From an uncultured Candidatus Saccharibacteria bacterium (lineage in GTDB: Bacteria > Patescibacteriota > Minisyncoccia > Minisyncoccales > GWA2-38-27), in the NCBI GenBank assembly GCA_964391095.1, contig CAYMJA010000004.1:1-56714 (forward strand): 56,714 bases of DNA, in the 5' to 3' direction. Made by a program: the position numbers and the translations under genes. Below the pieces are notes generated by a model. That model saw nothing but the letters and a program-made list of their open reading frames with translations. It ran no database searches and was not told the DNA's origin. Below, piece after piece: positions 8,723 through 52,416 of this stretch; position 1 is the stretch's first letter; every line of letters begins with the position of its first letter.

Positions 8723-9136
8723 TTACCTCCTCCTCCATAGTTTTTTGAAACATCTTAAAAAACATTGCCAGAAAGTCAATTGTGGTTTCCTCAGCTCTTC
8801 TTCCCAGTTCCATAATCTCCTCAGTTGTTTGGAATACAAAATGTCGGTAAGCCAGGTTAAATAGACGAGTTGATAATAGATAGGGTCGGAAGTTTTAATG
8901 GAAGAATAAATATCTTTGTACCTTCCTAAATTCCATTCCGGAAATTTAGAAGAATACTTTTTCAACCATTTGTTGGTTCGCTGACGAATCTTAGATTTAT
9001 TTCTTCTTAAGAAAAGAGAGTTAAGGTAATTTTTCTGATTCTTCAACAGTTCCCAAACTTCCCTTTCTCCAACACCAAATTTTCGGGCTAATTTGGGAAC
9101 TATATTTTTCAACAGTTCTTGTTTTTCCAAATCCAT
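8723..9136 (-). CDS. hypothetical protein (basic, Trp-rich)
   Basis: 137-aa ORF with strong SD (GGAAGGAGG, 8 nt before the ATG). I recognise no family. Confidence 0.5.
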   Translation of the reverse strand: MDLEKQELLKNIVPKLARKFGVGEREVWELLKNQKNYLNSLFLRRNKSKIRQRTNKWLKKYSSKFPEWNLGRYKDIYSSIKTSDPIYYQLVYLTWLTDILYSKQLRRLWNWEEELRKPQLTFWQCFLRCFKKLWRRR

Positions 9137-10198: not shown

Positions 10199-12328
10199 AT
10201 GCAGCTTAATTCAAGATTATATGATGATACCTTAGCGAATCAAGGTTCTGCGAGCGTTAGCGAGCAGGTTCTTATAATAGTAGAAAGTCCAACGAAATCT
10301 CACACAATCGAACGCTTCTTAGGGCCGGGATATAGGGTTCTGTCTTCTTTTGGGCATATCCGAGATCTGCCAAAAGATGAACTTGGGATTGATGTTGAGC
10401 ATAACTTCAAACCAAAATACGTTATTCCCTCAAAATCAAAAAAAATTATCTTAAATTTAAAAAAAGAGGCGCAAAAAACAGAGAAAACCATAATCGCCAC
10501 CGATGAAGATAGAGAAGGAGAATCTATTGCCTGGCATCTCAGCCAGGTCCTTGATTTAAAAAATCCTCAACGAATTGTTTTTCACGAAATTACCAAATCT
10601 GCCATTGAAGAGGCCTTGAAAAATCCCAGACCAATTGATATCAATTTAGTTAATGCCCAGCAGGCAAGAAGAATCTTAGATAGAATCGTTGGTTACAAAC
10701 TTTCGCCATTTCTGTGGAAAAAAGTGGCCAGAAGATTATCTGCCGGGAGGGTTCAATCGGTTGCGGTAAGATTGGTGGTAGAAAGAGAAAGAGAAATTAA
10801 AAATTTTAAACCAACAGAATATTGGTCAATCGTCGCCACACTCCTCAAACTCAAAACTCACTCCAATCTATCGATTTCGGAAATCAATAGATTTGAAGCG
10901 ACTTTGGTCAAAAAAGGTGAAAAAACAATTCCTAAGTTTGGAATTAAATCAAAAAAAGAAGCGGATAAAATTACTAAAGGCCTAAAAGGAGCTGAATACA
11001 AAATTGAAAGAATTGAAAAAAAAGAAATAAAAAAGAATCCTCTGCCGCCTTTCACTACCAGCACCTTACAGCAAGAGTCCTGGAAAAGATTCAGATTTCC
11101 AGCAAAATTTACTATGCAGATTGCCCAACAACTCTACGAAAAAGGACACATTAGCTACCATCGAACAGATTCTTTAAATCTTTCTCAACAATCTCTATTT
11201 GCTGCTAAAAAATTTATTGAAAGTAATTTTGGCAAAGAATATCGGGCTGGTTTTTTTAGAAAATATAAGGCAAAAGGCAAAGTTCAAGAAGCCCACGAGG
11301 CAATAAGACCGACCCTTGCAAGCAAAACCCCTGATACCTTAAAATTAAAAGCCAAATTGGATAACAATCAATATCGCCTTTATGACCTTATCTGGCGAAG
11401 ATTTATTTCATCACAAATGGCCCAAGCTATTTTTGATTCTACTTCAATAGAAATTTTGGCCAGAAATTATACTTTTCGGGCTGCTGGCCAAATGTTAAAA
11501 TTTGATGGATTTCTAAAAGTTTACCCTATCAAATTCAAAGAAAATGAACTACCCGTTTTAGAAAAAGAAGAAATCCTAAAACTTATAAAACTAATCCCCT
11601 CTCAACACTCTACCCAGCCGCCTCCCAGATATAGCGAAGCCACTTTAATTAAAACTTTAGAAGAAAATGGAATTGGCCGTCCTTCAACTTATGCTCCGAC
11701 ATTATCAACAATTCAAAAAAGAAATTATGTTGAAAAAGACCAACAAAGGAAATTTTTTCCTACTGAAATCGGAACAGTGGTTAATGATCTTTTGGCAAAA
11801 CACTTTTCAAAAATTGTAGATATTAAATTTACTGCTGAAATGGAAGAGGATTTAGATAGAATTGCTTTAGGAAAAGAAAAATGGACTAAGATTTGCCAAA
11901 ACTTTTATAAGCCATTTGAAGAGAATCTTCAGAAAAAATATCAGGAAGTTTCTAAAAAGGACATTACTGAAAAACCGACCGGAAAAAAATGCCCAAAATG
12001 CGACGCTCCCCTGCTAATTCGCCTGGGGAAATTTGGGAGATTTTACGCTTGTTCTAAATTTCCAAAATGTAGATACACCGAATCCTTAGAAGAAAAATCT
12101 CTCAAGATAAAATGCCCGAAATGTAATAAAGGCAATATGGTTGAAAAAAGAACTAAAAAAGGAAAAGTATTTTACGGCTGCGACCGCTTTCCGAAATGCG
12201 ACTTTGCCTTATGGGATAAACCAACCGGAGAAAAATGCCCCAAATGCGGTTCTTTGCTGGTTGAAAAAGGAAAAAAAATAAAATGTTCTAACAAAGATTG
12301 CCAATTTGAAAAAAATATGGCAGAATAA
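10199..12328 (+). CDS. topA: DNA topoisomerase I (type IA) with three C-terminal zinc ribbons
   Basis: Toprim LIIVESPTKSHTIERFLG and DEDREGE. Active-site region ISYHRTDS. Repeated CPKC...C..C fingers. The first about 24 codons are an atypical extension, so the start is uncertain. Confidence 0.9.
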   Translation: MQLNSRLYDDTLANQGSASVSEQVLIIVESPTKSHTIERFLGPGYRVLSSFGHIRDLPKDELGIDVEHNFKPKYVIPSKSKKIILNLKKEAQKTEKTIIATDEDREGESIAWHLSQVLDLKNPQRIVFHEITKSAIEEALKNPRPIDINLVNAQQARRILDRIVGYKLSPFLWKKVARRLSAGRVQSVAVRLVVEREREIKNFKPTEYWSIVATLLKLKTHSNLSISEINRFEATLVKKGEKTIPKFGIKSKKEADKITKGLKGAEYKIERIEKKEIKKNPLPPFTTSTLQQESWKRFRFPAKFTMQIAQQLYEKGHISYHRTDSLNLSQQSLFAAKKFIESNFGKEYRAGFFRKYKAKGKVQEAHEAIRPTLASKTPDTLKLKAKLDNNQYRLYDLIWRRFISSQMAQAIFDSTSIEILARNYTFRAAGQMLKFDGFLKVYPIKFKENELPVLEKEEILKLIKLIPSQHSTQPPPRYSEATLIKTLEENGIGRPSTYAPTLSTIQKRNYVEKDQQRKFFPTEIGTVVNDLLAKHFSKIVDIKFTAEMEEDLDRIALGKEKWTKICQNFYKPFEENLQKKYQEVSKKDITEKPTGKKCPKCDAPLLIRLGKFGRFYACSKFPKCRYTESLEEKSLKIKCPKCNKGNMVEKRTKKGKVFYGCDRFPKCDFALWDKPTGEKCPKCGSLLVEKGKKIKCSNKDCQFEKNMAE
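10233..10275 (+). repeat. GGTTCT-bracketed mini-element, copy 2, inside the annotated 5' end of topA
   Basis: TAGCGAATCAAGGTTCTG-CGAGCGTTAGCGAGCA-GGTTCTTAT. Confidence 0.6.
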
Positions 12329-12354
12329 ATTATCTGCCACAGAATAGATTATCT

Positions 12355-12438
12355 GCCGCGGTGGCGGAATTGGTTTACGCGTACGATTCAAAATCGTATA
12401 GGAGAAATCCTGTGTGGGTTCGAGTCCCACCCGCGGCA
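12355..12438 (+). tRNA. tRNA-Leu (anticodon CAA), long variable arm, CCA not encoded
   Basis: Hand-folded cloverleaf. Acceptor GCCGCGG/CCGCGGC. Anticodon stem TACGA/TCGTA with loop TTCAAAA. Variable arm AGGA/TCCT. T arm GTGGG-TTCGAGT-CCCAC. Discriminator A. Confidence 0.9.
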
Positions 12439-12559
12439 CAATGGAAACTTTAAGCGCTGGAAGTGCTTACAAATTTTCATTTTGGATGAGGATGTGGCGA
12501 GAATCCAACCTCCCGAATTGCGACGAGCGAAGTGAGGAGGTAATGCCTTCGGGCAACTT

Positions 12560-12580
12560 TTCGAGTTCCACCCGCGGCAC
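12560..12580 (+). repeat. direct repeat of the tRNA-Leu 3' end (20 of 21 nt identical to 12419-12439)
   Basis: TTCGAGTTCCACCCGCGGCAC compared with TTCGAGTCCCACCCGCGGCAC. The 120-nt interval between the copies is GC-rich. Confidence 0.85.
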
Positions 12581-12597
12581 TAGAACCACTTTTGAAT

Positions 12598-12626
12598 TTG
12601 ACAAAAAATTAGTATTCTGATATATT
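12598..12626 (+). promoter_or_regulatory. sigma70-like promoter TTGACA-17-TATATT
   Basis: TTGACA at 12598-12603 and TATATT at 12621-12626, upstream of the 12781 ORF. Confidence 0.55.
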
Positions 12627-12780
12627 GTAAATAAATAATAAATATCATTTTTGAACCTTAAAAAATAAAAAATATCAGAAAGGAAAGGAGATGAAAAAAG
12701 CTATATTTTAATCTTTGCGAAATTTCAGTCCGTGAGGACATTGGAAAGAAACTTAAAAGATAGAAAAGGAGGAATTACTT

Positions 12781-13074
12781 ATGGCTCGTTCAAGATTTAG
12801 CGGTAATGGAAAAGAAGAAGTTTTCGTAGTAATGACTAAAAATTTCAAGGTGTTTGTTGCCAACACTAAGAAAGGAATAAGGATGTGGATTAAGCAACGA
12901 GCTATTGCAAGGCATAATTTCGGCTTATTTCTATGCTGGCCTGATAAAAAAAACAACACGATAAGAATAACAACGATTGAAAGACCAAAGTTTTACCTAA
13001 CGAAGAAACGGCTTAATGCCTTAAGTGCTGCCTGTGTTTATTTTTTGACAAAACAAAGAGCACAAATGGAATAA
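12781..13074 (+). CDS. hypothetical protein (97 aa)
   Basis: Strong SD AAAGGAGG 8 nt upstream of the ATG and an intrinsic terminator 22 nt after the stop. No family recognised. Confidence 0.5.
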   Translation: MARSRFSGNGKEEVFVVMTKNFKVFVANTKKGIRMWIKQRAIARHNFGLFLCWPDKKNNTIRITTIERPKFYLTKKRLNALSAACVYFLTKQRAQME

Positions 13075-13095
13075 AATTTTGATTCTATCTCATAT

Positions 13096-13129
13096 AGGAC
13101 TTACGATATTAGTAAGTCCTCTTTTTTTT
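13096..13129 (+). terminator. intrinsic terminator
   Basis: AGGACTTAC-GATATTA-GTAAGTCCT followed by a run of eight T. Confidence 0.8.
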
Positions 13130-13220
13130 AGTTTTTCACTTCCACGACTATTTTACATATGTAAAATATTTACCCACAGAGACCTCGTCTCTGTTATTTC
13201 TCTGTTATTTTCCTCCATAT

Positions 13221-13257
13221 TAAAAAAAGGGACTGATATTTATACAACATCAGTCCT
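13221..13257 (-). terminator. intrinsic terminator of the 118-aa pilin-like gene
   Basis: On the minus strand, GGACTGAT/ATCAGTCC stem followed by TTTTTTT, 20 nt after the stop. Confidence 0.75.
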
Positions 13258-13277
13258 AAAAATTGAAGACCAATTCA

Positions 13278-13634
13278 CTATGGTTTACTACCTATTCCGC
13301 TTGCCCCAATTGTTTCACCTTCTTTGTACCTGATAAAGGTTTTGTCACCTACCATTGCGCGTTTGACTTCCCCTGTTTCTGAATTCTCAAGAATGAAGTA
13401 GTGAAGGTGACCACCTACTGAAGCGGGCACGCGTTCCCTCACAACCCAGCCATTCCACCCTTGAATGAACTTCTGAGTGAAGTCTTCAGCTTGTGAAGAC
13501 TTCCTGCGGTACAGAGAGACGCCGGATCTTACAAACATGATGGTTCCAATGATGAAAAAAATCATCAAAATGGCTACAATAACAAGCAATAGGTCGAGCC
13601 GATTAAACCCTTTTGATTTCCTCAAACTTTTCAT
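13278..13634 (-). CDS. small protein with degenerate prepilin-like N-terminal signal/anchor
   Basis: MKSLRKSKGFNRLDLLLVIVAILMIFF... has a basic leader, Gly, then a hydrophobic helix with Asp at +5. It shares its promoter, leader, N-terminus and RKSSQAE linker with the 13904-15220 gene. Confidence 0.6.
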   Translation of the reverse strand: MKSLRKSKGFNRLDLLLVIVAILMIFFIIGTIMFVRSGVSLYRRKSSQAEDFTQKFIQGWNGWVVRERVPASVGGHLHYFILENSETGEVKRAMVGDKTFIRYKEGETIGASGIGSKP

Positions 13635-13768
13635 AATTCATCACTCCTTTCTTGAATTGTCTTATATTCAGTTCTCAAAGAACTATTTTTTAGAAGATAC
13701 CATATTAAAAAATATCTGTCAAGTTTTTGTATAAGTCTGTTGTAGTTGTAAAAGATGCAAATTGTCAG
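13487..13768 (-). repeat. duplicated 5' module, copy 1 (promoter, leader, SD, signal/anchor, linker)
   Basis: Aligns by eye with 15088-15360. Long identical runs include TTCTTGAATTGTCTTATATTCAGTTCTCAAAGAACTAT and ATATTAAAAAATATCTGTCAAGTTTTTGTA. Confidence 0.85.
13694..13722 (-). promoter_or_regulatory. sigma70-like promoter TTGACA-17-TATCTT
   Basis: Reverse-strand TTGACA (13717-13722) and TATCTT (13694-13699). Duplicated at 15290-15318. Confidence 0.6.
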
Positions 13769-13841
13769 AGGATAGACCTTAGACACACTCCGACAGTTTT
13801 TTTCTACAAAGTTGTTTGAAAGCATATATTTTTACTTTGAT

Positions 13842-13875
13842 AAAATAAAAAAAGGTGGAGAACAAGTCTCCACCT
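13842..13875 (-). terminator. intrinsic terminator of the pilin-NamZ-like gene
   Basis: 9-bp stem AGGTGGAGA/TCTCCACCT with a 5-nt loop, followed on the minus strand by a T-rich run. Confidence 0.8.
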
Positions 13876-13903
13876 GAATTACTAATCGATTAAGCCGACT
13901 GAC

Positions 13904-15220
13904 CTAATCATAGAATAAATATTTTTTTCTTTTCTTCTTGAATTGCTCTAAGTCGCGCTGGTAACTTTGGACAATTTTTTCCGCAGGAACGCCCTTCTCC
14001 AGCATAAATCGTATCTTGTTTGTGCCGTTCGCTAAATCGAACATCCTTTTCCGCTTCTGAACACTCTCCAGTTTGAAATTGAATTTATCAGGGTACATCT
14101 TCATCAGAGTACCCATGATGTAGTATCCAACAGCAACAGGTTTAATCGTTCTTTCATCGGTAATGATTACCCTGACTCCTTGGCACAACTCGCCTTTATG
14201 GTGGAGATAGTAGGGTTTGAAATACATTGGTTGAAAATAAACCCCGGATAGCTTCAATGCATTTAATGTTTTTGAAAATTCTTCTGCATTTATCCAGGGA
14301 GCGCCAACCAGTTTGAATGGCAAGGTATAACCAACTCCAATATTTACTATCGGGAGCTCTCCCATTATGCCCGTAATGGGAAGAAACAATGCTGTGTCCA
14401 TTTCAGGAACGTGGGGTGACGTTGGAGTCCAGACAAGACCAGTGTTTCTCCAAGCCATGTCCCTTTTCCAGCCCTGCATCTTCACAACTTTCAGGTCGCA
14501 ATTAATCTCGCACTCCTTGTTAAAATATGTTGCGAGTTCCCCTATGGTCATTCCATGGACATAGGCTATTGGAGCTATTCCAATGAAAGACTTGAACTCT
14601 GGGTCAAGAACAGGACCACCTACAACCCATCCACCTATGGGATTGGGCCTGTCGAGGACGATGAATTTAATCTTATGTTCAGCCGCAGCTTCCATACAGT
14701 AGTACATTGTAGAGATATAGGTGTAGGATCTTGTACCAATATCCTGAATATCAAATATCAGGACATCAATGTTTTTCAACATTTCTGGGGTTGGTTTTCG
14801 GGTTTTTCCGTAAAGACTGTAAACGATTATACCTGTTTTTGGGTCTTTACTTCCTTCCACTGTTCCATGTACCCCGCCCCGGATGCCGTGCTCAGGGCCA
14901 AATAAAGCCTTAAGTTCAACACCAGGAAGCAAGGCAATGCGGTCAGCACTTGGACACAGATTGCTGTCCACACCAGTAGGATTAGTAACCAAACCGACCC
15001 TTTTACCCCAGATTAGATCTCGCTTCTCTTCTACAAGTACTTCAATACCCAGTTTTACAGCCGGTCTGAGTTTTACAGCCGGTTTCTCAGCCTGTGAAGA
15101 CTTTCTGTGCTCCAGAAAAGTGGGTATTGCAATCGCAGCAAGGATTCCAATGAATGTAATAACAATCAATAGCTCAATCAGGGTAAGCCCTTTTCTCTTT
15201 CTTTCTCTCAAAGTTTTCAT
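13904..15220 (-). CDS. prepilin-type N-terminal domain fused to a DUF1343/NamZ-like (exo-beta-N-acetylmuramidase family) domain
   Basis: N-terminus is KRKG-LTLIELLIVITFIGILAAIAIPTF. DUF1343 motifs: LVTNPTGVD, LFGPEHGIRG, TGIIVYSLYGK, DVLIFDIQDIGTRSYTYI, VLDRPNPIGG, HGMTIGELA. Confidence 0.8.
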   Translation of the reverse strand: MKTLRERKRKGLTLIELLIVITFIGILAAIAIPTFLEHRKSSQAEKPAVKLRPAVKLGIEVLVEEKRDLIWGKRVGLVTNPTGVDSNLCPSADRIALLPGVELKALFGPEHGIRGGVHGTVEGSKDPKTGIIVYSLYGKTRKPTPEMLKNIDVLIFDIQDIGTRSYTYISTMYYCMEAAAEHKIKFIVLDRPNPIGGWVVGGPVLDPEFKSFIGIAPIAYVHGMTIGELATYFNKECEINCDLKVVKMQGWKRDMAWRNTGLVWTPTSPHVPEMDTALFLPITGIMGELPIVNIGVGYTLPFKLVGAPWINAEEFSKTLNALKLSGVYFQPMYFKPYYLHHKGELCQGVRVIITDERTIKPVAVGYYIMGTLMKMYPDKFNFKLESVQKRKRMFDLANGTNKIRFMLEKGVPAEKIVQSYQRDLEQFKKKRKKYLFYD

Positions 15221-15360
15221 AAGTCATCACCTCCTTTCTTGAATTGTCTTATATTCAGTTCTCAAAGAACTATCAAACATCTATTTTTCAAGATAGCATA
15301 TTAAAAAATATCTGTCAAGTTTTTGTACAAGTTTATCGTAACTGTAAAAGATGCAAAATT
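15088..15360 (-). repeat. duplicated 5' module, copy 2
   Basis: Paralogous to 13487-13768. Extends from the RKSSQAE linker codons through the promoter to the stop codon of the PAP2 gene. Confidence 0.85.
15290..15318 (-). promoter_or_regulatory. sigma70-like promoter TTGACA-17-TATCTT
   Basis: Reverse-strand TTGACA (15313-15318) and TATCTT (15290-15295). Confidence 0.6.
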
Positions 15361-15884
15361 TAATTAAAACCCTTTGATTTTTGCAAAGCAGGCAGAATTC
15401 TATAAATTAGCCAACCAGAGAATATTCCAACCGCAGCTCCAGCTAAAATATCTGAGGGCCAATGGATACCGATAAAAATCCTGGCTAAACAAATCAGAAA
15501 ACTGGCTAAAAAAAATAAAAGTCCTGCTTTTTTGTTGTAAAAATAAACAATAGTAGATATTGCAAAAAAGAAAGCAGCATGACCAGAAGGAAAAGCAGCA
15601 GTATTGTGGGTGATAAGCAAATTAACATTATTTTCTACAAATGGTCTTGGTCTTTGCCAAATCCAACGAATAAAATTAACAATAACTAATCTTGCCAAGA
15701 TAGCTGAAATAATTGCCTGAAGAACCATCTTCCAATATTGCTTGAACTTTATCGCTAAAAACAAAAACAAACAAAAGACCAAGACATATTCAAAATATTG
15801 AGCAAAGAAAATTCCTAAAACATTTAACCAGAACCATTTAAAAGCAAATTGATTTATTTGTTGAAAAATATATAAATCCATCAT
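15360..15884 (-). CDS. PAP2-family phosphatase (undecaprenyl-diphosphatase-like)
   Basis: Membrane protein with acid-phosphatase motifs RPRP, PSGH and ARIFIGIHWPSD. Confidence 0.8.
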   Translation of the reverse strand: MMDLYIFQQINQFAFKWFWLNVLGIFFAQYFEYVLVFCLFLFLAIKFKQYWKMVLQAIISAILARLVIVNFIRWIWQRPRPFVENNVNLLITHNTAAFPSGHAAFFFAISTIVYFYNKKAGLLFFLASFLICLARIFIGIHWPSDILAGAAVGIFSGWLIYRILPALQKSKGFN

Positions 15885-15899
15885 TTAAAGAAAAAATTT

Positions 15900-15937
15900 G
15901 TTCAAGGTCGGGTGTTCAAGGTCGGGTCTTGAACAAC
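15900..15937 (-). repeat. 3'-end hairpin element GTTCAAGGTCGGGT (x2) CTTGAAC; second locus of the 363-383 element
   Basis: Overlaps the folD stop codon. On the minus strand the stem-loop is followed by AAATTTTTT, so it looks like a terminator. Confidence 0.6.
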
Positions 15938-18775: not shown

Positions 18776-19504
18776 TTAATGAAAATTCTTTGAGGCCTTA
18801 AGAAACCGAGAAAACTTTATGATATCTGCAGGATTGCCAAAATCTATCCAATGATCTTGAATTTTCTTTACCCTCACCTTTCTTTTTTCTGCCAGAAGGC
18901 TAACTACATCAGTGATTTCATATTCTCCTCTTGGAGATTTACGAATCTTCGGAAGTTTATCAAACACCTCCGGAGTAAATTTATACAAACCAGTATTAAT
19001 TAAATTCCCGATATGTTTTTTGGGTTTTTCCACAATTCTTTTCAAAAATCCGTTGTCAGCAATAAGTACTCCGTATTTTTCGGGCCGTTGATGATAGAAA
19101 CCAGCGACATAATTATATTTCCCTTCAATATTCAGAGCTTGAAGGTCTTTTACCGAGTAAAGATTATCGCCGCAGACAAACAAAAAATGCTCTCTGCCAA
19201 CGATATCTTTAATGCATTTCAAAGGACAGGCAGTGCCATATATTTTCTCTTTTCCTCCTAAAATTTTGAATTGATTAACAATTGTTGCTTTGTACTTGTA
19301 TTTCTTAAGAAACTCCCTCATCATCTCTGCTTTATAACCCACGACCAAAATCAATTCCCTGTAACCAGCTTTTAAAAGATTATCTAAAAGATAACCCAGA
19401 AAGGGTTTCTTCTGGACTCTAATAAGATGTTTAGATTTATTCTTGCTGAGATGCAGCATCCTGGTTCCCTGGCCAGCAGCCGCAATCACTACTTTATTAA
19501 TCAC
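18776..19504 (-). CDS. sugar-phosphate nucleotidyltransferase (NTP_transferase family)
   Basis: N-terminal VIAAAGQGTRM signature; size typical of the family. Confidence 0.75.
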   Translation of the reverse strand: MINKVVIAAAGQGTRMLHLSKNKSKHLIRVQKKPFLGYLLDNLLKAGYRELILVVGYKAEMMREFLKKYKYKATIVNQFKILGGKEKIYGTACPLKCIKDIVGREHFLFVCGDNLYSVKDLQALNIEGKYNYVAGFYHQRPEKYGVLIADNGFLKRIVEKPKKHIGNLINTGLYKFTPEVFDKLPKIRKSPRGEYEITDVVSLLAEKRKVRVKKIQDHWIDFGNPADIIKFSRFLKASKNFH

Positions 19505-23516: not shown

Positions 23517-24407
23517 TTAGCCGAGAAAGCCAGAAGCTGAGCCACAGTCCCGATGGGAATGGCCGCTGGCCCCGATACAGCTGAACTCAGGCCTCCCGAC
23601 ACCCCAGAAGAAGCAAGGGCAGCTGTCAAACAGGTTACTAACACTAGAAAAGTACTCGCAGCCGGCACAATATATGCTAAGATCTCCGTCCTTCTGTAAT
23701 CGCTCAGGATTAACCAATAAGATGGTGCTTACTGCATAAGGACCAAGTCCAAATTCGTTGGAAGAGAACATTACTCGGGCCCTTCGTACTGAACGACCAC
23801 GGTGACGTAGACCTGTTTGGACCGGAATAACTAAGAAATCCCCTGGGGTTTCTTTTTCCAACTTAGCAATGGCCCGTTGAGTTCTCCCAGTCAGGCGCAG
23901 GTATTTTGGACCAAGTTCGCCTTCTTGGTAGTTAAACCAATCCTCACGAGATTGAGCCATTAATTTGGTCATCAAGACCGTAGCATCATTGTAAGAACAG
24001 GCTACTTTGGATGGTTTGGGAATAACAAATAGTCCATCAGCTCCTTCAGGAAGTTTGAAGAAATCTTTGATAATCTCAGCCATTTTATTTACCTGACTGG
24101 CATCAAGCGCTCTAAACTCCTCAATCTGTTGAAGAACAGCAAGTTGGTCAGGAACACTCTTGGGGTGCCAACCTTCGGGATAACCATAAGTTGATTCCAG
24201 TGCTTCATTGGCATAGGGCAACTCACCCAACTTTTGAAGAATAGAAGTGATTTCTCTCTGAAAATCACCTCCTGCCTCAATTACTCTTTGGACACTATCT
24301 CCACCCAGACCGCTTTTACGTAAAGCTGCTTCAAGCAGTTCCTTGACCTTGGCTATTTGGCCATCAGTCATTTTCTCTTGTGGCGTGATCAATGTATCCA
24401 TTGTCAT
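23517..24407 (-). CDS. hypothetical protein, G+C-rich orphan with Cys-rich C-terminus
   Basis: 296-aa ORF with no family recognised. It has its own promoter, SD (AAAGGAGGG) and terminator. The second ATG at 24401 has better SD spacing. Confidence 0.55.
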   Translation of the reverse strand: MTMDTLITPQEKMTDGQIAKVKELLEAALRKSGLGGDSVQRVIEAGGDFQREITSILQKLGELPYANEALESTYGYPEGWHPKSVPDQLAVLQQIEEFRALDASQVNKMAEIIKDFFKLPEGADGLFVIPKPSKVACSYNDATVLMTKLMAQSREDWFNYQEGELGPKYLRLTGRTQRAIAKLEKETPGDFLVIPVQTGLRHRGRSVRRARVMFSSNEFGLGPYAVSTILLVNPERLQKDGDLSIYCAGCEYFSSVSNLFDSCPCFFWGVGRPEFSCIGASGHSHRDCGSASGFLG

Positions 24408-26101: not shown

Positions 26102-26569
26102 ATGGATTATCTTTTTTTGCCAGAAGACCTAAAAATGCTTGATGAAAAAATTAACGGAATTAACGAAAGAGTGAAAAAGGCCTTAAAAAGAATTGGAGAC
26201 AGTTGTGATGGTGGAGATAGTTGGCACGATAATTTTTCTTTTGAACAAGCGCAGCGAGACGCGGAAATGTGGTCGAACCAACTACGTGCGTTAATAGCCG
26301 TAAAAAATAATGCGAAGGTGGTGTACCCCGAAGATTTCAGAAGAGACAAGGTAAATATTGGTAAAACCGTTACAACTAAATACGAAGGCGATGACAGCAC
26401 AATGACATTCCGGGTAGGAAGTTATATGGTTTTAAACAAAGAAAAAAGCAACGCGATTTCATATAAGACACCATTGGTAAAAGCTATTTTAGGGGCAAAA
26501 GTTGGCGAAATTAGGGAAGCAAGGATAGCAGGAAAGAATAAAAAAATAAAAATTGTTCAAATTAAATAA
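26102..26569 (+). CDS. GreA/GreB-family transcription factor paralogue
   Basis: C-terminal ISYKTPLVKAILGAKVGEIRE and acidic tip-like GGDSWHDNFSFEQAQRD. Strong SD AAAGGAGG. Confidence 0.7.
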   Translation: MDYLFLPEDLKMLDEKINGINERVKKALKRIGDSCDGGDSWHDNFSFEQAQRDAEMWSNQLRALIAVKNNAKVVYPEDFRRDKVNIGKTVTTKYEGDDSTMTFRVGSYMVLNKEKSNAISYKTPLVKAILGAKVGEIREARIAGKNKKIKIVQIK

Positions 26570-32762: not shown

Positions 32763-34086
32763 TTAATTTTTCTCTTAAAACTTTAATTAAATCTTTAATT
32801 TTTAGTCTCTCTTGTTTCATTGTATCACGGTCGCGAAGAGTAACATCTTCTTGTTTCAAACTTTCAAAATCAACTGTAATTGCCCAGGGAACTCCAATTT
32901 CATCCACCCTGCGATATCTTCTACCGATTGAGCCGACTTCATCATATTGGCAGACAAAATAAGGTTTTAATAGTTGATAAACCTCTTTTGCTTTTTTTAC
33001 CAGTTTTGGTTTGTTCTTCACTAAAGGCAAAACCGCTACTTTAATTGGAGCTATTTTTTTATCCAGTTTAAGTAAAACTTCCGTTTCTTTAGTTGCTTTT
33101 GTTGTCTTAGTTCTTCCTTCTCTTATCTCCTGATAGGCATCACATAAAAAAGCCAAAAAACTTCTATCTACACCAACTGAAGTTTCAATAATATAAGGAA
33201 AATATCTCTCTCTGGTTTCTTCATTATAATATCTTAAATCTTTGCCTGAGGCTTTGGAATGGTTAGATAAATCAAAATCTCCTCGGTTATGAATTCCTTC
33301 AATCTCTTCCCAACCAAAAGGAAATTTATATTCAATATCTATTTGCTGCTTGGCATAATGAGCTCTTTTTTCTGCTGGAACTTCTATTGCCCTTAAATTC
33401 TCTTTTTTAATCCCAAGATTCTTGTACCATTTTATTCTTTCTTCTTTCCAAAAATTAAAATATTTTTTGGCTTGTTTTGGCTCACAAAACCACTGCATCT
33501 CCATTTGCTCAAATTCTCTGGTTCTGAAAATGAAATTTCTAGGAGTAATTTCGTTTCTAAAGGCCTTTCCAATCTGAGCAATCCCAAAAGGAATTTTCAT
33601 TCTCATAGAATCTAAAACATTCTCAAAATTGACATAAATACCTTGGCAGGTTTCTGCTCTCAAATAAGTTGTGGCCGCTTCATCTTCAACTGGTCCCACA
33701 AAAGTTTTCATCATTAAATTAAACTTACGGGCTTTTATCAGTTCTCCCCCACAATCCGGACACTTATGAAGTCTTGCGATTTCGTCTTGACGAAATCGCT
33801 TATGGCATTTCTTACACTCTACTAATTCGTCAGCAAATCCAGCAGTTAAGTGCCCAGAGGCCTGCCAAACTTTAGGGCTCATTAAAATTGCTGCATCCAA
33901 ACCAACAATATTTTCTTGCATTTGAACCATTTCTTTCCACCAAGCCCTCTTGACATTATTTTTCATCTCTCCCCCCAAGGGACCAAAATCATAACAAGAC
34001 TTAAATCCGCCATAAATCTCTGAAGACTGAAAGACAAAACCCCGACGTTTACACAAAGAAATAATTTTTTGCATTAAATCCTCCAT
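32755..34086 (-). CDS. glyQS: glycine--tRNA ligase (alpha2 type)
   Basis: Class II motifs, a Cys cluster CKKC...CPDC and a C-terminal anticodon-binding domain. Confidence 0.95.
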   Translation of the reverse strand: MEDLMQKIISLCKRRGFVFQSSEIYGGFKSCYDFGPLGGEMKNNVKRAWWKEMVQMQENIVGLDAAILMSPKVWQASGHLTAGFADELVECKKCHKRFRQDEIARLHKCPDCGGELIKARKFNLMMKTFVGPVEDEAATTYLRAETCQGIYVNFENVLDSMRMKIPFGIAQIGKAFRNEITPRNFIFRTREFEQMEMQWFCEPKQAKKYFNFWKEERIKWYKNLGIKKENLRAIEVPAEKRAHYAKQQIDIEYKFPFGWEEIEGIHNRGDFDLSNHSKASGKDLRYYNEETRERYFPYIIETSVGVDRSFLAFLCDAYQEIREGRTKTTKATKETEVLLKLDKKIAPIKVAVLPLVKNKPKLVKKAKEVYQLLKPYFVCQYDEVGSIGRRYRRVDEIGVPWAITVDFESLKQEDVTLRDRDTMKQERLKIKDLIKVLREKLNG

Positions 34087-35801
34087 TATTCTATAACTCG
34101 ACCCATTTCTTCGCTCACGGTTGGGTCATCCGGTAAAGTAGTATCTATGGCAGAAGCAGATGCTTCAACAATTGTTTCTGTCCACTGATCTTCACCGCTA
34201 ATCCTTGCTTCTTTAATAATCGGCAAAACCTGACCCCTCTGTCCAGAAAAAGGAGTTAAAGCAACCTGAAAAGCGATATTTGGGGCTGGATTCAAAATCC
34301 CTGTTCCCGCCGTCATAACCTCACTATCTCTCACTGTCCAAACAATTTCCCTGCTCTGGCTGTCGTAGGTGAATTTTGTGTTTTCCTCTTCAGGAAAAAT
34401 TTTACCAGTTAATCTTACACTAGAAGGCAAAATTGCTTTTACTTTCACATTTTTAAGATCATTATAATAATTCTTTGCCTGCCAAATTATGGTATAAGTA
34501 GTAGATTCCCCAACTTTTGGGGGCAGGGGTCCTGAATTTCCAAAAACCTCCTCTTGATAGTAACCCTTCTGGGAAATGACTACCTTTGAATTTATTTTTG
34601 TTTCAAATTCTTCTCTTATTTGAGAAATCAAAACCGTATTTCTTAAAAGGACATTTTTTTCTTGAGGACTGCTAATTTCCCATTTTTCTTTTAGGTTTAT
34701 CCAAAATTCAACTTTATCTTCCTCTCCCTGCCCCAAAAAGCGCAGTTTATTATTATCTCTCCAATCCCAGAGTATAGAATTATCTCCCTTATTAAACTGG
34801 CCAGAATTAAGTTTTAGACTATCAAAATCAAAACCTTTACCCTCTAATCTCGCCACTAAAAATAAATCACTAAAAGGTTCCTCTCCAATATTCCTAAAGT
34901 AAATTTCGTAATGAAGTAAATCTCCGGAATTGGCAAGATATTGATTTTGATTGTTTATCCGTTGGAAAACAAAAAGACGAGGTTTTGTGATTTCTACACC
35001 TCTTGTTACTTCTTTTATCGGAATAAATTCATTTTCTAACCAAATACCAAGAACAGCTCGGAAAATTTTTTGTTCTTTAAGCTCTCCTAACAATTTTCCT
35101 TTAATTCCAATTCTTCCTCCGGCAGCTTTGTTTAAAAGAGGAATCTCCCATTCCGTTTTCTCCAATGTTTCGGGTTCGCTGTCCAAAAATTCAAAACCTG
35201 AGGGATATTCAATTTTTATTCCAAGATTACTGAGAGGATAATCTAAGCTGGAAAAATAATTCAAAGAAAATTTGAAATCCCTGCCGGTTTCTACTCTTGA
35301 GGGAAGGTCAAACTCAAGAGTTAAAGGAACTGATTTGATTACAGTAGTAAAAGTAGTGGTTGACTCATAGCGGGCTTTTAAATTCTTTGGTTGATAACTC
35401 AACCAGGCCTTAGCCATCTTTACTTCATTTTCTTTTCCAAAAAGCCTTCCTTTAAACTGAAAGGTTTTTTCTTCACCAGGATAAATATCTCCCAATTCTT
35501 CCGGTCCTATTTCTTGTCTTCGGGAAAGATTTTCTTCTCTACCAGCTTCATCATCCGAAGAAGCAGCTAATAAAGTATATTCCGGAAATTCAAAAATAAG
35601 CTGGGGTTCTTCTAATCTAACATTGCCATTATTTTTATATTTTACAGTGTATTCAACTTCCTGAAGAACTGCTGTTTCTTCAGGACCTAAAATTTCCAAT
35701 TTCAGAATTTCCTTTGAGTAAGGATTTCTTTGCCAATACCAAAAACCAGCTGCCCCAAGAACTAAAAATAAAATTATGATAAAAAGAATAAACTTCTTCA
35801 T
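34086..35801 (-). CDS. hypothetical membrane-anchored or secreted protein
   Basis: N-terminal TM helix followed by about 540 aa of beta-rich sequence. No family recognised. Confidence 0.6.
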   Translation of the reverse strand: MKKFILFIIILFLVLGAAGFWYWQRNPYSKEILKLEILGPEETAVLQEVEYTVKYKNNGNVRLEEPQLIFEFPEYTLLAASSDDEAGREENLSRRQEIGPEELGDIYPGEEKTFQFKGRLFGKENEVKMAKAWLSYQPKNLKARYESTTTFTTVIKSVPLTLEFDLPSRVETGRDFKFSLNYFSSLDYPLSNLGIKIEYPSGFEFLDSEPETLEKTEWEIPLLNKAAGGRIGIKGKLLGELKEQKIFRAVLGIWLENEFIPIKEVTRGVEITKPRLFVFQRINNQNQYLANSGDLLHYEIYFRNIGEEPFSDLFLVARLEGKGFDFDSLKLNSGQFNKGDNSILWDWRDNNKLRFLGQGEEDKVEFWINLKEKWEISSPQEKNVLLRNTVLISQIREEFETKINSKVVISQKGYYQEEVFGNSGPLPPKVGESTTYTIIWQAKNYYNDLKNVKVKAILPSSVRLTGKIFPEEENTKFTYDSQSREIVWTVRDSEVMTAGTGILNPAPNIAFQVALTPFSGQRGQVLPIIKEARISGEDQWTETIVEASASAIDTTLPDDPTVSEEMGRVIE

Positions 35802-51927: not shown

Positions 51928-52416
51928 TTAATTTTTGTATTTTATTTTTTTAATTCTATAAATGACTTTTATCGGGGAAGAAATGACAACTTCATCCCCA
52001 ACCCGATGACCTAAAAGAGCTTTTCCTACTGGAGATTCATTGCTAATTTTTCCCAAAACAGGATTAGCTTCTAATGTTCCTACAATTTTAAACTTATCTT
52101 TATCGCCATCTATTTCTACTGATACTTCAGCTCCCAGGCATATAATATTTCTTTTAGGGGCAGGGGGAGCTTTTATCAACTCTGCATTCTTTAAAATATT
52201 TTCCAGTTCAGTAATTTTCTTTTCAAGAAGGTTTAAGTTTTCTTGAAAAGAAAGGTATTCGGGATTTAAATCTTCGGAATGTAAAATTTCCGGAGCCACC
52301 ACCCTTCTTGTTTTAGCCAACTTAATCTCCTTCAAGACTTCATATTCTTTTTTTATTTTTTTAAGACCCTGGATAGATAAATAAAATTTTTCTTCTCCCG
52401 GTATATTAATATTCAT
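51928..52416 (-). CDS. greA: transcription elongation factor GreA
   Basis: Coiled-coil tip SEDLNPEY and C-terminal ISNESPVGKALLGHRVGDEV. Confidence 0.85.
   Translation of the reverse strand: MNINIPGEEKFYLSIQGLKKIKKEYEVLKEIKLAKTRRVVAPEILHSEDLNPEYLSFQENLNLLEKKITELENILKNAELIKAPPAPKRNIICLGAEVSVEIDGDKDKFKIVGTLEANPVLGKISNESPVGKALLGHRVGDEVVISSPIKVIYRIKKIKYKN

Follow-up and report, generated by a model that had tools for sequence, protein, structure and literature searches.

A predicted NamZ exo-beta-N-acetylmuramidase with a pilin-type N-terminal stalk in a Nealsonbacteria-like genome fragment

Introduction

Several described systems resemble parts of the gene reported here. In the modular pilins, a pilin module carries an additional domain; 1,219 such proteins with 264 architectures have been compiled, many of them from phyla of the Candidate Phyla Radiation (CPR) and with predicted peptidases among the added domains (PMC8179133). 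NamZ of Bacillus subtilis is a secreted exo-beta-N-acetylmuramidase that forms a dimer of ~90 kDa and takes part in the turnover of the cell's own wall (PMC8054146), and the NamZ enzymes of Tannerella release N-acetylmuramic acid (MurNAc) or its disaccharide with N-acetylglucosamine (GlcNAc-MurNAc) from peptide-free glycans only, sparing intact sacculi. We analysed a stretch of 56,714 nucleotides (positions 1 to 56,714 of contig CAYMJA010000004.1, assembly GCA_964391095.1; from here on, the window) in which one minus-strand gene, at 13904..15220, appears to join a pilin-type N-terminus to a complete NamZ enzyme. The reading that we favour, with modest confidence, is that a foreign NamZ, normally secreted by the Sec pathway, was re-targeted as a surface enzyme tethered by a pilin stalk, where it would scavenge the glycan ends of peptidoglycan.

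With the modular pilins, such as PilB and PilC of Streptococcus sanguinis (IPR012902 plus an extra module; PMC8179133), the fusion shares an architecture that is frequent in CPR bacteria, and enzyme modules (peptidases S74 and M26) are known in that class. NamZ/DUF1343 is not among the 264 architectures of Dataset S1 in PMC8179133. Whereas PilB and PilC have a small, complete pilin module, the pilin part of the fusion ends at about mature residue 34 and is headless; in place of the folded module that acts as the carrier in modular pilins there is alpha1-N only. Judging from the predicted structure, the protein would at most work like a modular pilin, and its strict membership in the class is doubtful. 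The modular-pilin theme is known; what the locus would add to it is an exo-muramidase on a headless stalk, obtained by a signal swap after transfer.

The enzyme part is like NamZ (YbbC) of B. subtilis, TfNamZ1/2 of Tannerella forsythia and BF0371 (PDB 4k05) in belonging to GH171, in having both Pfam domains and the glutamate of the PEHG motif, and in its predicted extracytoplasmic location. The known enzymes serve recycling or salvage in their own organisms, acting on peptide-free glycan ends of peptidoglycan. Their signals, where they have one, are of the Sec or lipoprotein type, and the enzymes are either set free or periplasmic, whereas the fusion has a class III signal and an attached stalk; unlike the known NamZ loci, it lies in a CPR genome without murQ/nagZ/amiE-type neighbours.

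Two further comparisons concern the stalk. PilA-N of Geobacter (9egp, 7tgg, 2m7g) is likewise truncated to almost alpha1 only and illustrates that a helix-only pilin can be a filament subunit. It pairs with a separate PilA-C that supplies the head, and, unlike PilA-N, the helix of the fusion continues covalently into an unrelated 43-kDa enzyme. In the archaeal bindosome, sugar-binding proteins of Sulfolobus bear class III signals, are processed by PibD and are assembled by the dedicated Bas system. In both cases a pilin-type signal would hold a non-pilin protein on a cell that lacks an outer membrane, but the bindosome is archaeal, carries binding proteins where the fusion carries a hydrolase, and involves the Bas system.

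Results

Architecture of the fusion protein

The ORF (open reading frame) and the N-terminus MKTLRERKRKG that the initial annotation had given for this gene are present, with the frame intact. The parts of the product are the following.

13904..15220, minus strand: pilin-NamZ fusion ORF, 438 aa, with leader, alpha1-N stalk, linker and NamZ/GH171 enzyme
15188..15220, minus strand: basic leader peptide MKTLRERKRKG, residues 1-11, with Gly-1 as its last residue; predicted prepilin-peptidase site
15098..15187, minus strand: pilin alpha1-N stalk, residues 12-41, with Glu5, Gly14 and Pro22 (mature numbering)
15056..15097, minus strand: flexible linker between stalk and enzyme, residues 42-55, with low pLDDT (predicted local distance difference test score)
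14399..14998, minus strand: NamZ_N catalytic domain, residues 75-274, Pfam PF07075
14891-14893, minus strand: codon of Glu110, the putative catalytic residue of the invariant PEHG motif
13910..14380, minus strand: NamZ_C auxiliary domain, residues 281-437, Pfam PF20732

The assignment of the larger part to DUF1343/NamZ was confirmed. Both Pfam domains were recovered far above their cut-offs (NamZ_N, E = 3.7e-85 and 284.9 bits against 26.9; NamZ_C, E = 1.4e-45 and 156.2 bits against 25), and PDB entry 4k05 was matched by phmmer at E = 6.6e-116 with 48% identity. The full-length structure prediction that had been proposed, an AlphaFold2 model from an alignment of 52 sequences (pLDDT 91.5), has the Rossmann-like N-domain and alpha/beta C-domain of the family; compared with 4k05, its target-normalised template modelling score (TM) is 0.97 and its root-mean-square deviation 1.3 A, and compared with 4jja the TM is 0.88. 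All 44 columns that are invariant against 51 homologues are kept, P109-E110-H111 among them, and in the aligned PEHG motif Glu110 is the counterpart of Glu92, the putative catalytic residue of the B. subtilis enzyme (PMC8054146). From its sequence, the NamZ domain is predicted to be a complete and intact exo-beta-N-acetylmuramidase.

The N-terminus reads MKTLRERKRKG followed by LTLIELLIVITFIGILAAIAIPTF and thus has the basic leader, the Gly, the Glu at +5 and the ~21 hydrophobic residues of a class III signal. Glu5, Gly14 and Pro22 are hallmark residues of assembling type IVa pilins. The prepilin claim passed the curated cut-offs of Pfam N_methyl (23.3 bits against 21.2, residues 7-32) and of NCBIfam TIGR02532 (22.2 bits against 16.3), as the DUF1343 claim had passed those of its own profiles. 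Models of PilA, GspG, GspH and ComGC gave partial matches to the N-terminus of the fusion only, and residues 6-46 aligned with true, structurally solved pilins in the PDB (phmmer, E = 1e-7 to 1e-3), the best of them being Geobacter PilA-N at E = 1e-7.

The resemblance to a pilin stops at the helix. In the AlphaFold2 model, a single helix (14-41) is followed by a disordered segment (42-55) and, from residue 56, by the NamZ fold, and no beta-sheet pilin head is present; the full alpha1 of ~53 residues packed on such a head, which defines a pilin, is lacking in the fusion protein. Full-length pilin and pseudopilin equivalog models likewise matched the N-terminus only, with scores far under their cut-offs. 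Because the model has no beta-sheet head, we read the pilin part as a predicted headless stalk rather than as a pilin module bearing an extra domain.

Rarity of the architecture

Among the 119 closest NamZ homologues, the N-terminus bears a signal of Sec or lipoprotein type or, where it is shorter or cut, no signal, which agrees with what the initial annotation had stated of the family. The proposed survey for the same fusion returned the prepilin motif in 0 of these 119 homologues, in 0 of 74 N-terminal fragments and in 0 of 59 loci from GTDB representatives, so the architecture is unusual for the family; a query with the first 116 residues returned short proteins only, full-length fusions being beyond its reach. 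A degenerate DNA pattern (pilin motif, PEHG, M-E/D), which admits linkers within ~5 residues only, gave 9 hits and no fusion in the metagenome collection, and in the window it matched only the 13904-15220 gene. Within the sequences covered by these searches, the pilin-NamZ fusion is apparently unique.

Expression unit and shared 5' module

The following elements surround the coding sequence.

15290..15318, minus strand: sigma-70-like promoter, TTGACA-17-TATCTT with a TG extension
15221..15289, minus strand: 5' untranslated region (UTR) of the fusion gene, including a 43-nt repeat, a 15-nt palindrome and the ribosome-binding site
15230-15236, minus strand: strong ribosome-binding site AAGGAGG, 9 nt 5' of the ATG
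13853..13875, minus strand: intrinsic-terminator-like hairpin with a 9-bp stem and a T-run, at the end of the NamZ unit

Because it has a promoter, a ribosome-binding site and a terminator of its own, the fusion gene is predicted to be a self-contained monocistronic unit. Its 5' part recurs downstream, at the head of a second gene that we call ORF118.

15086..15357, minus strand: 5' module common to the fusion gene and ORF118, with promoter, UTR, leader and transmembrane helix, ending in '..RKSSQAE'
13486-13761, minus strand: second copy of the 5' module, before ORF118
13694-13722, minus strand: second promoter copy, before ORF118
13278..13634, minus strand: ORF118, an orphan of 118 aa headed by the second module copy
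13230-13256, minus strand: terminator of ORF118
15051..15083, minus strand: 18-nt tandem duplication, PAVKLR-PAVKLG, marking the fusion junction

The UTR stretch 15231-15273 (43 nt) is 100% identical to 13644-13686. A perfect 15-nt palindrome, AGTTCTTTGAGAACT, lies inside the identical part of both UTRs, at 15264-15278 and at approximately 13677-13691; as an operator or a small hairpin, it might co-regulate the fusion gene and ORF118. The shared 5'UTR had no Rfam match, and its fold z-score of -1.2 is non-significant. An exact 34-nt search for the shared UTR/promoter in the metagenome collection gave 0 matches and did not return the window's own organism either.

The junction itself is informative. 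In the 119 closest homologues, the signal region is followed by a conserved mature start, '..KPxVKLGIEVL', and in the fusion gene the homology between the module copies ends at '..SSQAE' with the NamZ segment 'KPAVKL' directly next to it. Since module homology stops where NamZ homology begins, we infer that the Sec signal was replaced by the pilin 5' module at the signal-peptidase site, exactly at the mature N-terminus. The tandem repeat that had been noted here is real and consists of two exact 15-nt copies (15051-15065 and 15069-15083) with a period of 18; it sits on the junction because the first NamZ segment, with its conserved mature start KPxVKLG, is doubled there, and it is either a footprint of the recombination or a later lengthening of the linker.

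The ORF118 product shows what has become of the sister copy. Its leader is a degenerate pilin-like one, KG followed by FNRLD..., its helix has Asp5 and lacks Gly14 and Pro22, and the protein has no match to Pfam N_methyl. No homologue was found among 1.84 billion representative proteins. A single-sequence model (pLDDT 66) has a helix of 47 residues (12-58) and then three beta-strands, with no significant structural match; ORF118 can only be suggested to be a pilin.

Horizontal origin and the lineage-specific insertion

The window belongs to a reduced CPR bacterium, in line with the earlier description of a reduced organism: its neighbouring genes are 58-88% identical to those of Nealsonbacteria-like Patescibacteria (FolD up to 71%, SHMT up to 88%, TopA up to 78%), and the ComEC and DprA that had been reported are both in the window. 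The NamZ body points elsewhere. Its 119 closest homologues (50-71% identity) come from Sumerlaeota, Omnitrophica, KSB1 and similar bacteria, the nearest, at 67-71%, being of Sumerlaeota/Omnitrophica type, and the most similar one lies in a diderm-like context with Peptidase_S8, LPP20 and TPR genes; no CPR genome is represented among the 59 NamZ loci from GTDB representatives. At third codon positions, the GC content (GC3) of 50 other genes of the window averages 0.286 and does not exceed 0.404, whereas the NamZ body reaches 0.437 and ORF118 0.462. A viral origin was considered and rejected, as no NamZ relative was found in viral contigs.

12440..15359, no strand: ~3-kb lineage-specific insertion with ORF97, ORF118 and the NamZ fusion, between tRNA-Leu and PAP2

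The gene order SHMT-FolD-PAP2-[gap]-TopA-DprA is common to the relatives, and in the window the tRNA-Leu lies in the gap, adjoining TopA. The closest relative (locus L065) lacks the insertion, with a PAP2-TopA gap of ~220 bp against ~3 kb. The foreign GC3, the absence of the insertion from the closest relative, the lack of CPR members among the 59 loci and the diderm context of the homologue all argue that the NamZ gene was acquired horizontally from an unrelated bacterium. The initial annotation had missed this origin, and likewise the exact signal swap and the module of regulatory and leader elements that the two genes share.

What lies between PAP2 and tRNA-Leu/TopA varies within this CPR lineage (loci L065-L084), and other relatives have 1.1-9 kb of unrelated cargo there. 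The third gene of the insertion, ORF97 (12781-13074, plus strand), has a native-like composition, a near-consensus promoter at 12598-12626 (11/12 matches) and a terminator at 13096-13120; it has 0 Pfam or NCBIfam family matches. The 3' end of the tRNA-Leu, TTCGAGTCCCACCCGCGGCAC (12419-12439), recurs with 1 mismatch at 12560-12580, 141 bp downstream, and this repeat at the edge of the insertion resembles the scar of an attachment site or an incomplete second copy of the tRNA. At the other edge, the C-terminus of PAP2, '...QKSKGFN' (15360-15380), matches the ORF118 leader 'RKSKGFN' (13601-13618) at 16/18 nt, codon-aligned, and the PAP2 tails of the relatives are unlike it; a third module copy may have left this trace at the insertion boundary, or the match is due to chance.

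Integrity of the assembly

Two copies of a module so close together raise the possibility, about which the initial annotation had been concerned, that the fusion is a mis-join at the duplicated 5' module or a non-functional recent chimera without a biological role. The copies lie 1.6 kb apart and share exact repeats of 30 and 43 nt; Logan contigs begin, and one also ends, in the repeated UTR/promoter, and break or loop there; and ORF118 is an orphan. Such contig ends are expected of repeat-limited assembly. The exact repeats are all 5' of the ATG, however, and within the coding part the copies have no exact match longer than ~12 nt. A match of this length would not mislead an assembler, which excludes a k-mer mis-join as the source of the junction of stalk and enzyme. 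The identical 438-aa protein was found in 5 other assemblies from two pipelines, 2 of JGI (with the same neighbours) and 3 of Logan, with 100% nucleotide identity from the UTR across the junction. A gene without a role would also sit badly with an intact ORF that keeps all invariant residues of the family and has its own promoter, ribosome-binding site and terminator. The sequences in hand therefore indicate that the fusion is not an assembly chimera, and we consider an artefact or functionless chimera very improbable.

In two of the Logan contigs (L003 1500-1626 and L004 1500-1559), the sequence 3' of NamZ enters the shared promoter repeat, and in L003 it changes after the repeat to the NamZ-type UTR variant. 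Either the assembly path of L003 looped through the repeat, or NamZ units are truly in tandem in that sample.

Proposed function and its alternatives

In the reading that we favour, a type IVa-like pilin gene would have supplied the acquired NamZ with a promoter, 5'UTR, leader and alpha1-N stalk in place of its own signal. The preprotein would enter the cytoplasmic membrane in the manner of a prepilin, with its N-terminus inside and its C-terminus outside, and prepilin peptidase would cleave after Gly11 and methylate Leu12. The enzyme of ~43 kDa would then stand outside the membrane on a flexible tether of ~14 residues. The tether would hold it on the cell surface, from which, with no outer membrane present, it could otherwise diffuse off, and there it would remove terminal MurNAc or MurNAc-containing disaccharides from peptide-free glycan ends. 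The substrate to be salvaged would be wall debris from neighbouring or partner cells, or the products of the cell's own wall turnover. Because the stalk keeps the Glu5, Gly14 and Pro22 needed for filament assembly, a type IV pilus might now and then take up the protein at its tip, which the tether model does not require.

By analogy with the characterised enzymes, an exo-enzyme of the NamZ type would be a tool for scavenging or trimming and not for breaching walls. The local breach of a host wall that had been envisaged is unlikely, because the action of NamZ enzymes is confined to peptide-free glycan ends and leaves intact sacculi untouched. The initial annotation was right on the architecture and speculative as to its use: the prepilin N-terminus on a complete NamZ stands, and display on a pilus, or export by a pilus machine, is a conjecture, given the headless stalk and the absence of PilB, PilC, PilD and PilMNO from the window.

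For their building blocks CPR bacteria depend on other cells, and type IV pili play a central part in this way of life. A closed Nealsonbacteria genome encodes 12 pilus-assembly proteins, and type IV pili are well conserved in CPR (PMC11623550).

Several points weigh against the surface-tether reading. Among the ~50 genes of the window, none encodes PilB, PilC, PilD/Peptidase_A24, T2SSE, T2SSF or PilMNO. PilC from a distant CPR locus (L144), as a single query, matched 3 loci; with an alignment as the query, the assemblies of the closest relatives were not among the matches listed. The window also holds no gene for MurNAc uptake or salvage, no amidase and no NagZ. All copies of the gene that were found are identical in sequence and offer no variation for judging selection. 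Finally, the fusion may have formed in the donor organism and not in this lineage, since the GC3 of the 5' module itself is also raised (0.40).

The nucleotidyltransferase at 18776-19504 was considered as a MurU and rejected (44 bits against a cut-off of 250); it is a generic sugar-1-phosphate nucleotidyltransferase. With this score and no salvage gene in the window, the harvesting of MurNAc that had been proposed is without local support.

The residues of the stalk also allow a bolder proposal, namely that after processing by PilD the stalk is built into a filament, at its tip or sporadically, and carries NamZ to the wall or debris of a partner to harvest MurNAc. With Glu5, Gly14 and Pro22, the stalk comes close to the consensus of an assembling major pilin, and it aligns with solved pilins, while the sister copy in ORF118 has degenerated at these positions and lost its N_methyl match; a headless pilin that assembles is known in Geobacter PilA-N, the best PDB match. 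A small pilin cassette would agree with the flexible linker and with the neighbouring, co-regulated ORF118, which has a low-confidence long helix and then beta-strands. Exposure at the tip has been proposed for modular pilins whose modules are bulky, predicted peptidases included (PMC8179133). Yet the fusion has no globular domain to make subunit contacts in the shell of a filament, a ~90-kDa dimer such as that of B. subtilis NamZ would be awkward as a filament subunit, and pilus genes are missing from the window. The wall of a living partner would yield little, because peptide-bearing intact sacculi resist NamZ. One characterised member of Nealsonbacteria is described as a biomass-recycling epibiont of the archaeon Methanothrix, which weakens the case for a peptidoglycan-bearing host and tells against the filament proposal too. 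Methanogens such as Methanothrix are not known to have peptidoglycan. We regard this catalytic use of a pilus as unlikely, and we would give still lower probability to its fuller version, in which an ultrasmall episymbiont brings NamZ on its type IV pili to the wall of a partner or of a dead neighbour and frees MurNAc-containing sugars.

At the other end, the pilin-derived helix might be an uncleaved signal-anchor only, with the enzyme trimming or recycling the cell's own peptidoglycan. Prepilin-type N-termini are inserted by the signal recognition particle and Sec and can serve without further processing as bitopic anchors; a tether of ~14 residues would hold the enzyme near its own membrane; and B. 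subtilis NamZ acts in the turnover of its own wall. The gene nevertheless came in recently as foreign DNA and is missing from the closest relative, which sets it apart from core wall metabolism, and the residues for cleavage and assembly, needless in an anchor, are fully kept although the sister copy shows how quickly they can decay. We find a plain anchor quite improbable.

Under the surface-tether reading that we prefer, the locus would be a clean and datable case in which a precise signal swap gave a foreign secreted enzyme a new destination, the Sec signal of a double-membraned donor giving way to a pilin-type anchor that would keep the enzyme on a cell lacking an outer membrane. Should the stalk be processed and assembled, modular pilins would come to include, beyond adhesins, a peptidoglycan glycosidase, and episymbionts would have a testable route for scavenging MurNAc. 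If it is only an anchor, pilin leaders would be general surface-retention signals in CPR organisms, and the counts of 'pilins' in CPR annotation would therefore be inflated.

Other features of the window

Two repeats lie close to the insertion. A perfect 14-nt tandem duplication (TGTTCAAGGTCGGG twice), at 15899-15926 between PAP2 and FolD, overlaps a terminator-like hairpin at 15913-15935, and a near-perfect tandem repeat, CAGAATA[A/G]ATTATCTGCC (12321-12357; 18-nt copies with a period of 19), occupies part of the stretch from the topA end to where the tRNA-Leu starts.

The ORFs at 23517-24407 and 8723-9136 have no family match. The window encodes two GreA-like genes, at 26102-26569 and 51928-52416, of which the first matches the C-terminal domain of GreA/GreB only and may, on that basis, be a Gfh-like paralogue. 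On the minus strand, at 34086-35801, a protein of 571 aa with weak matches to DUF11 and DUF7619 repeats is probably a surface protein.

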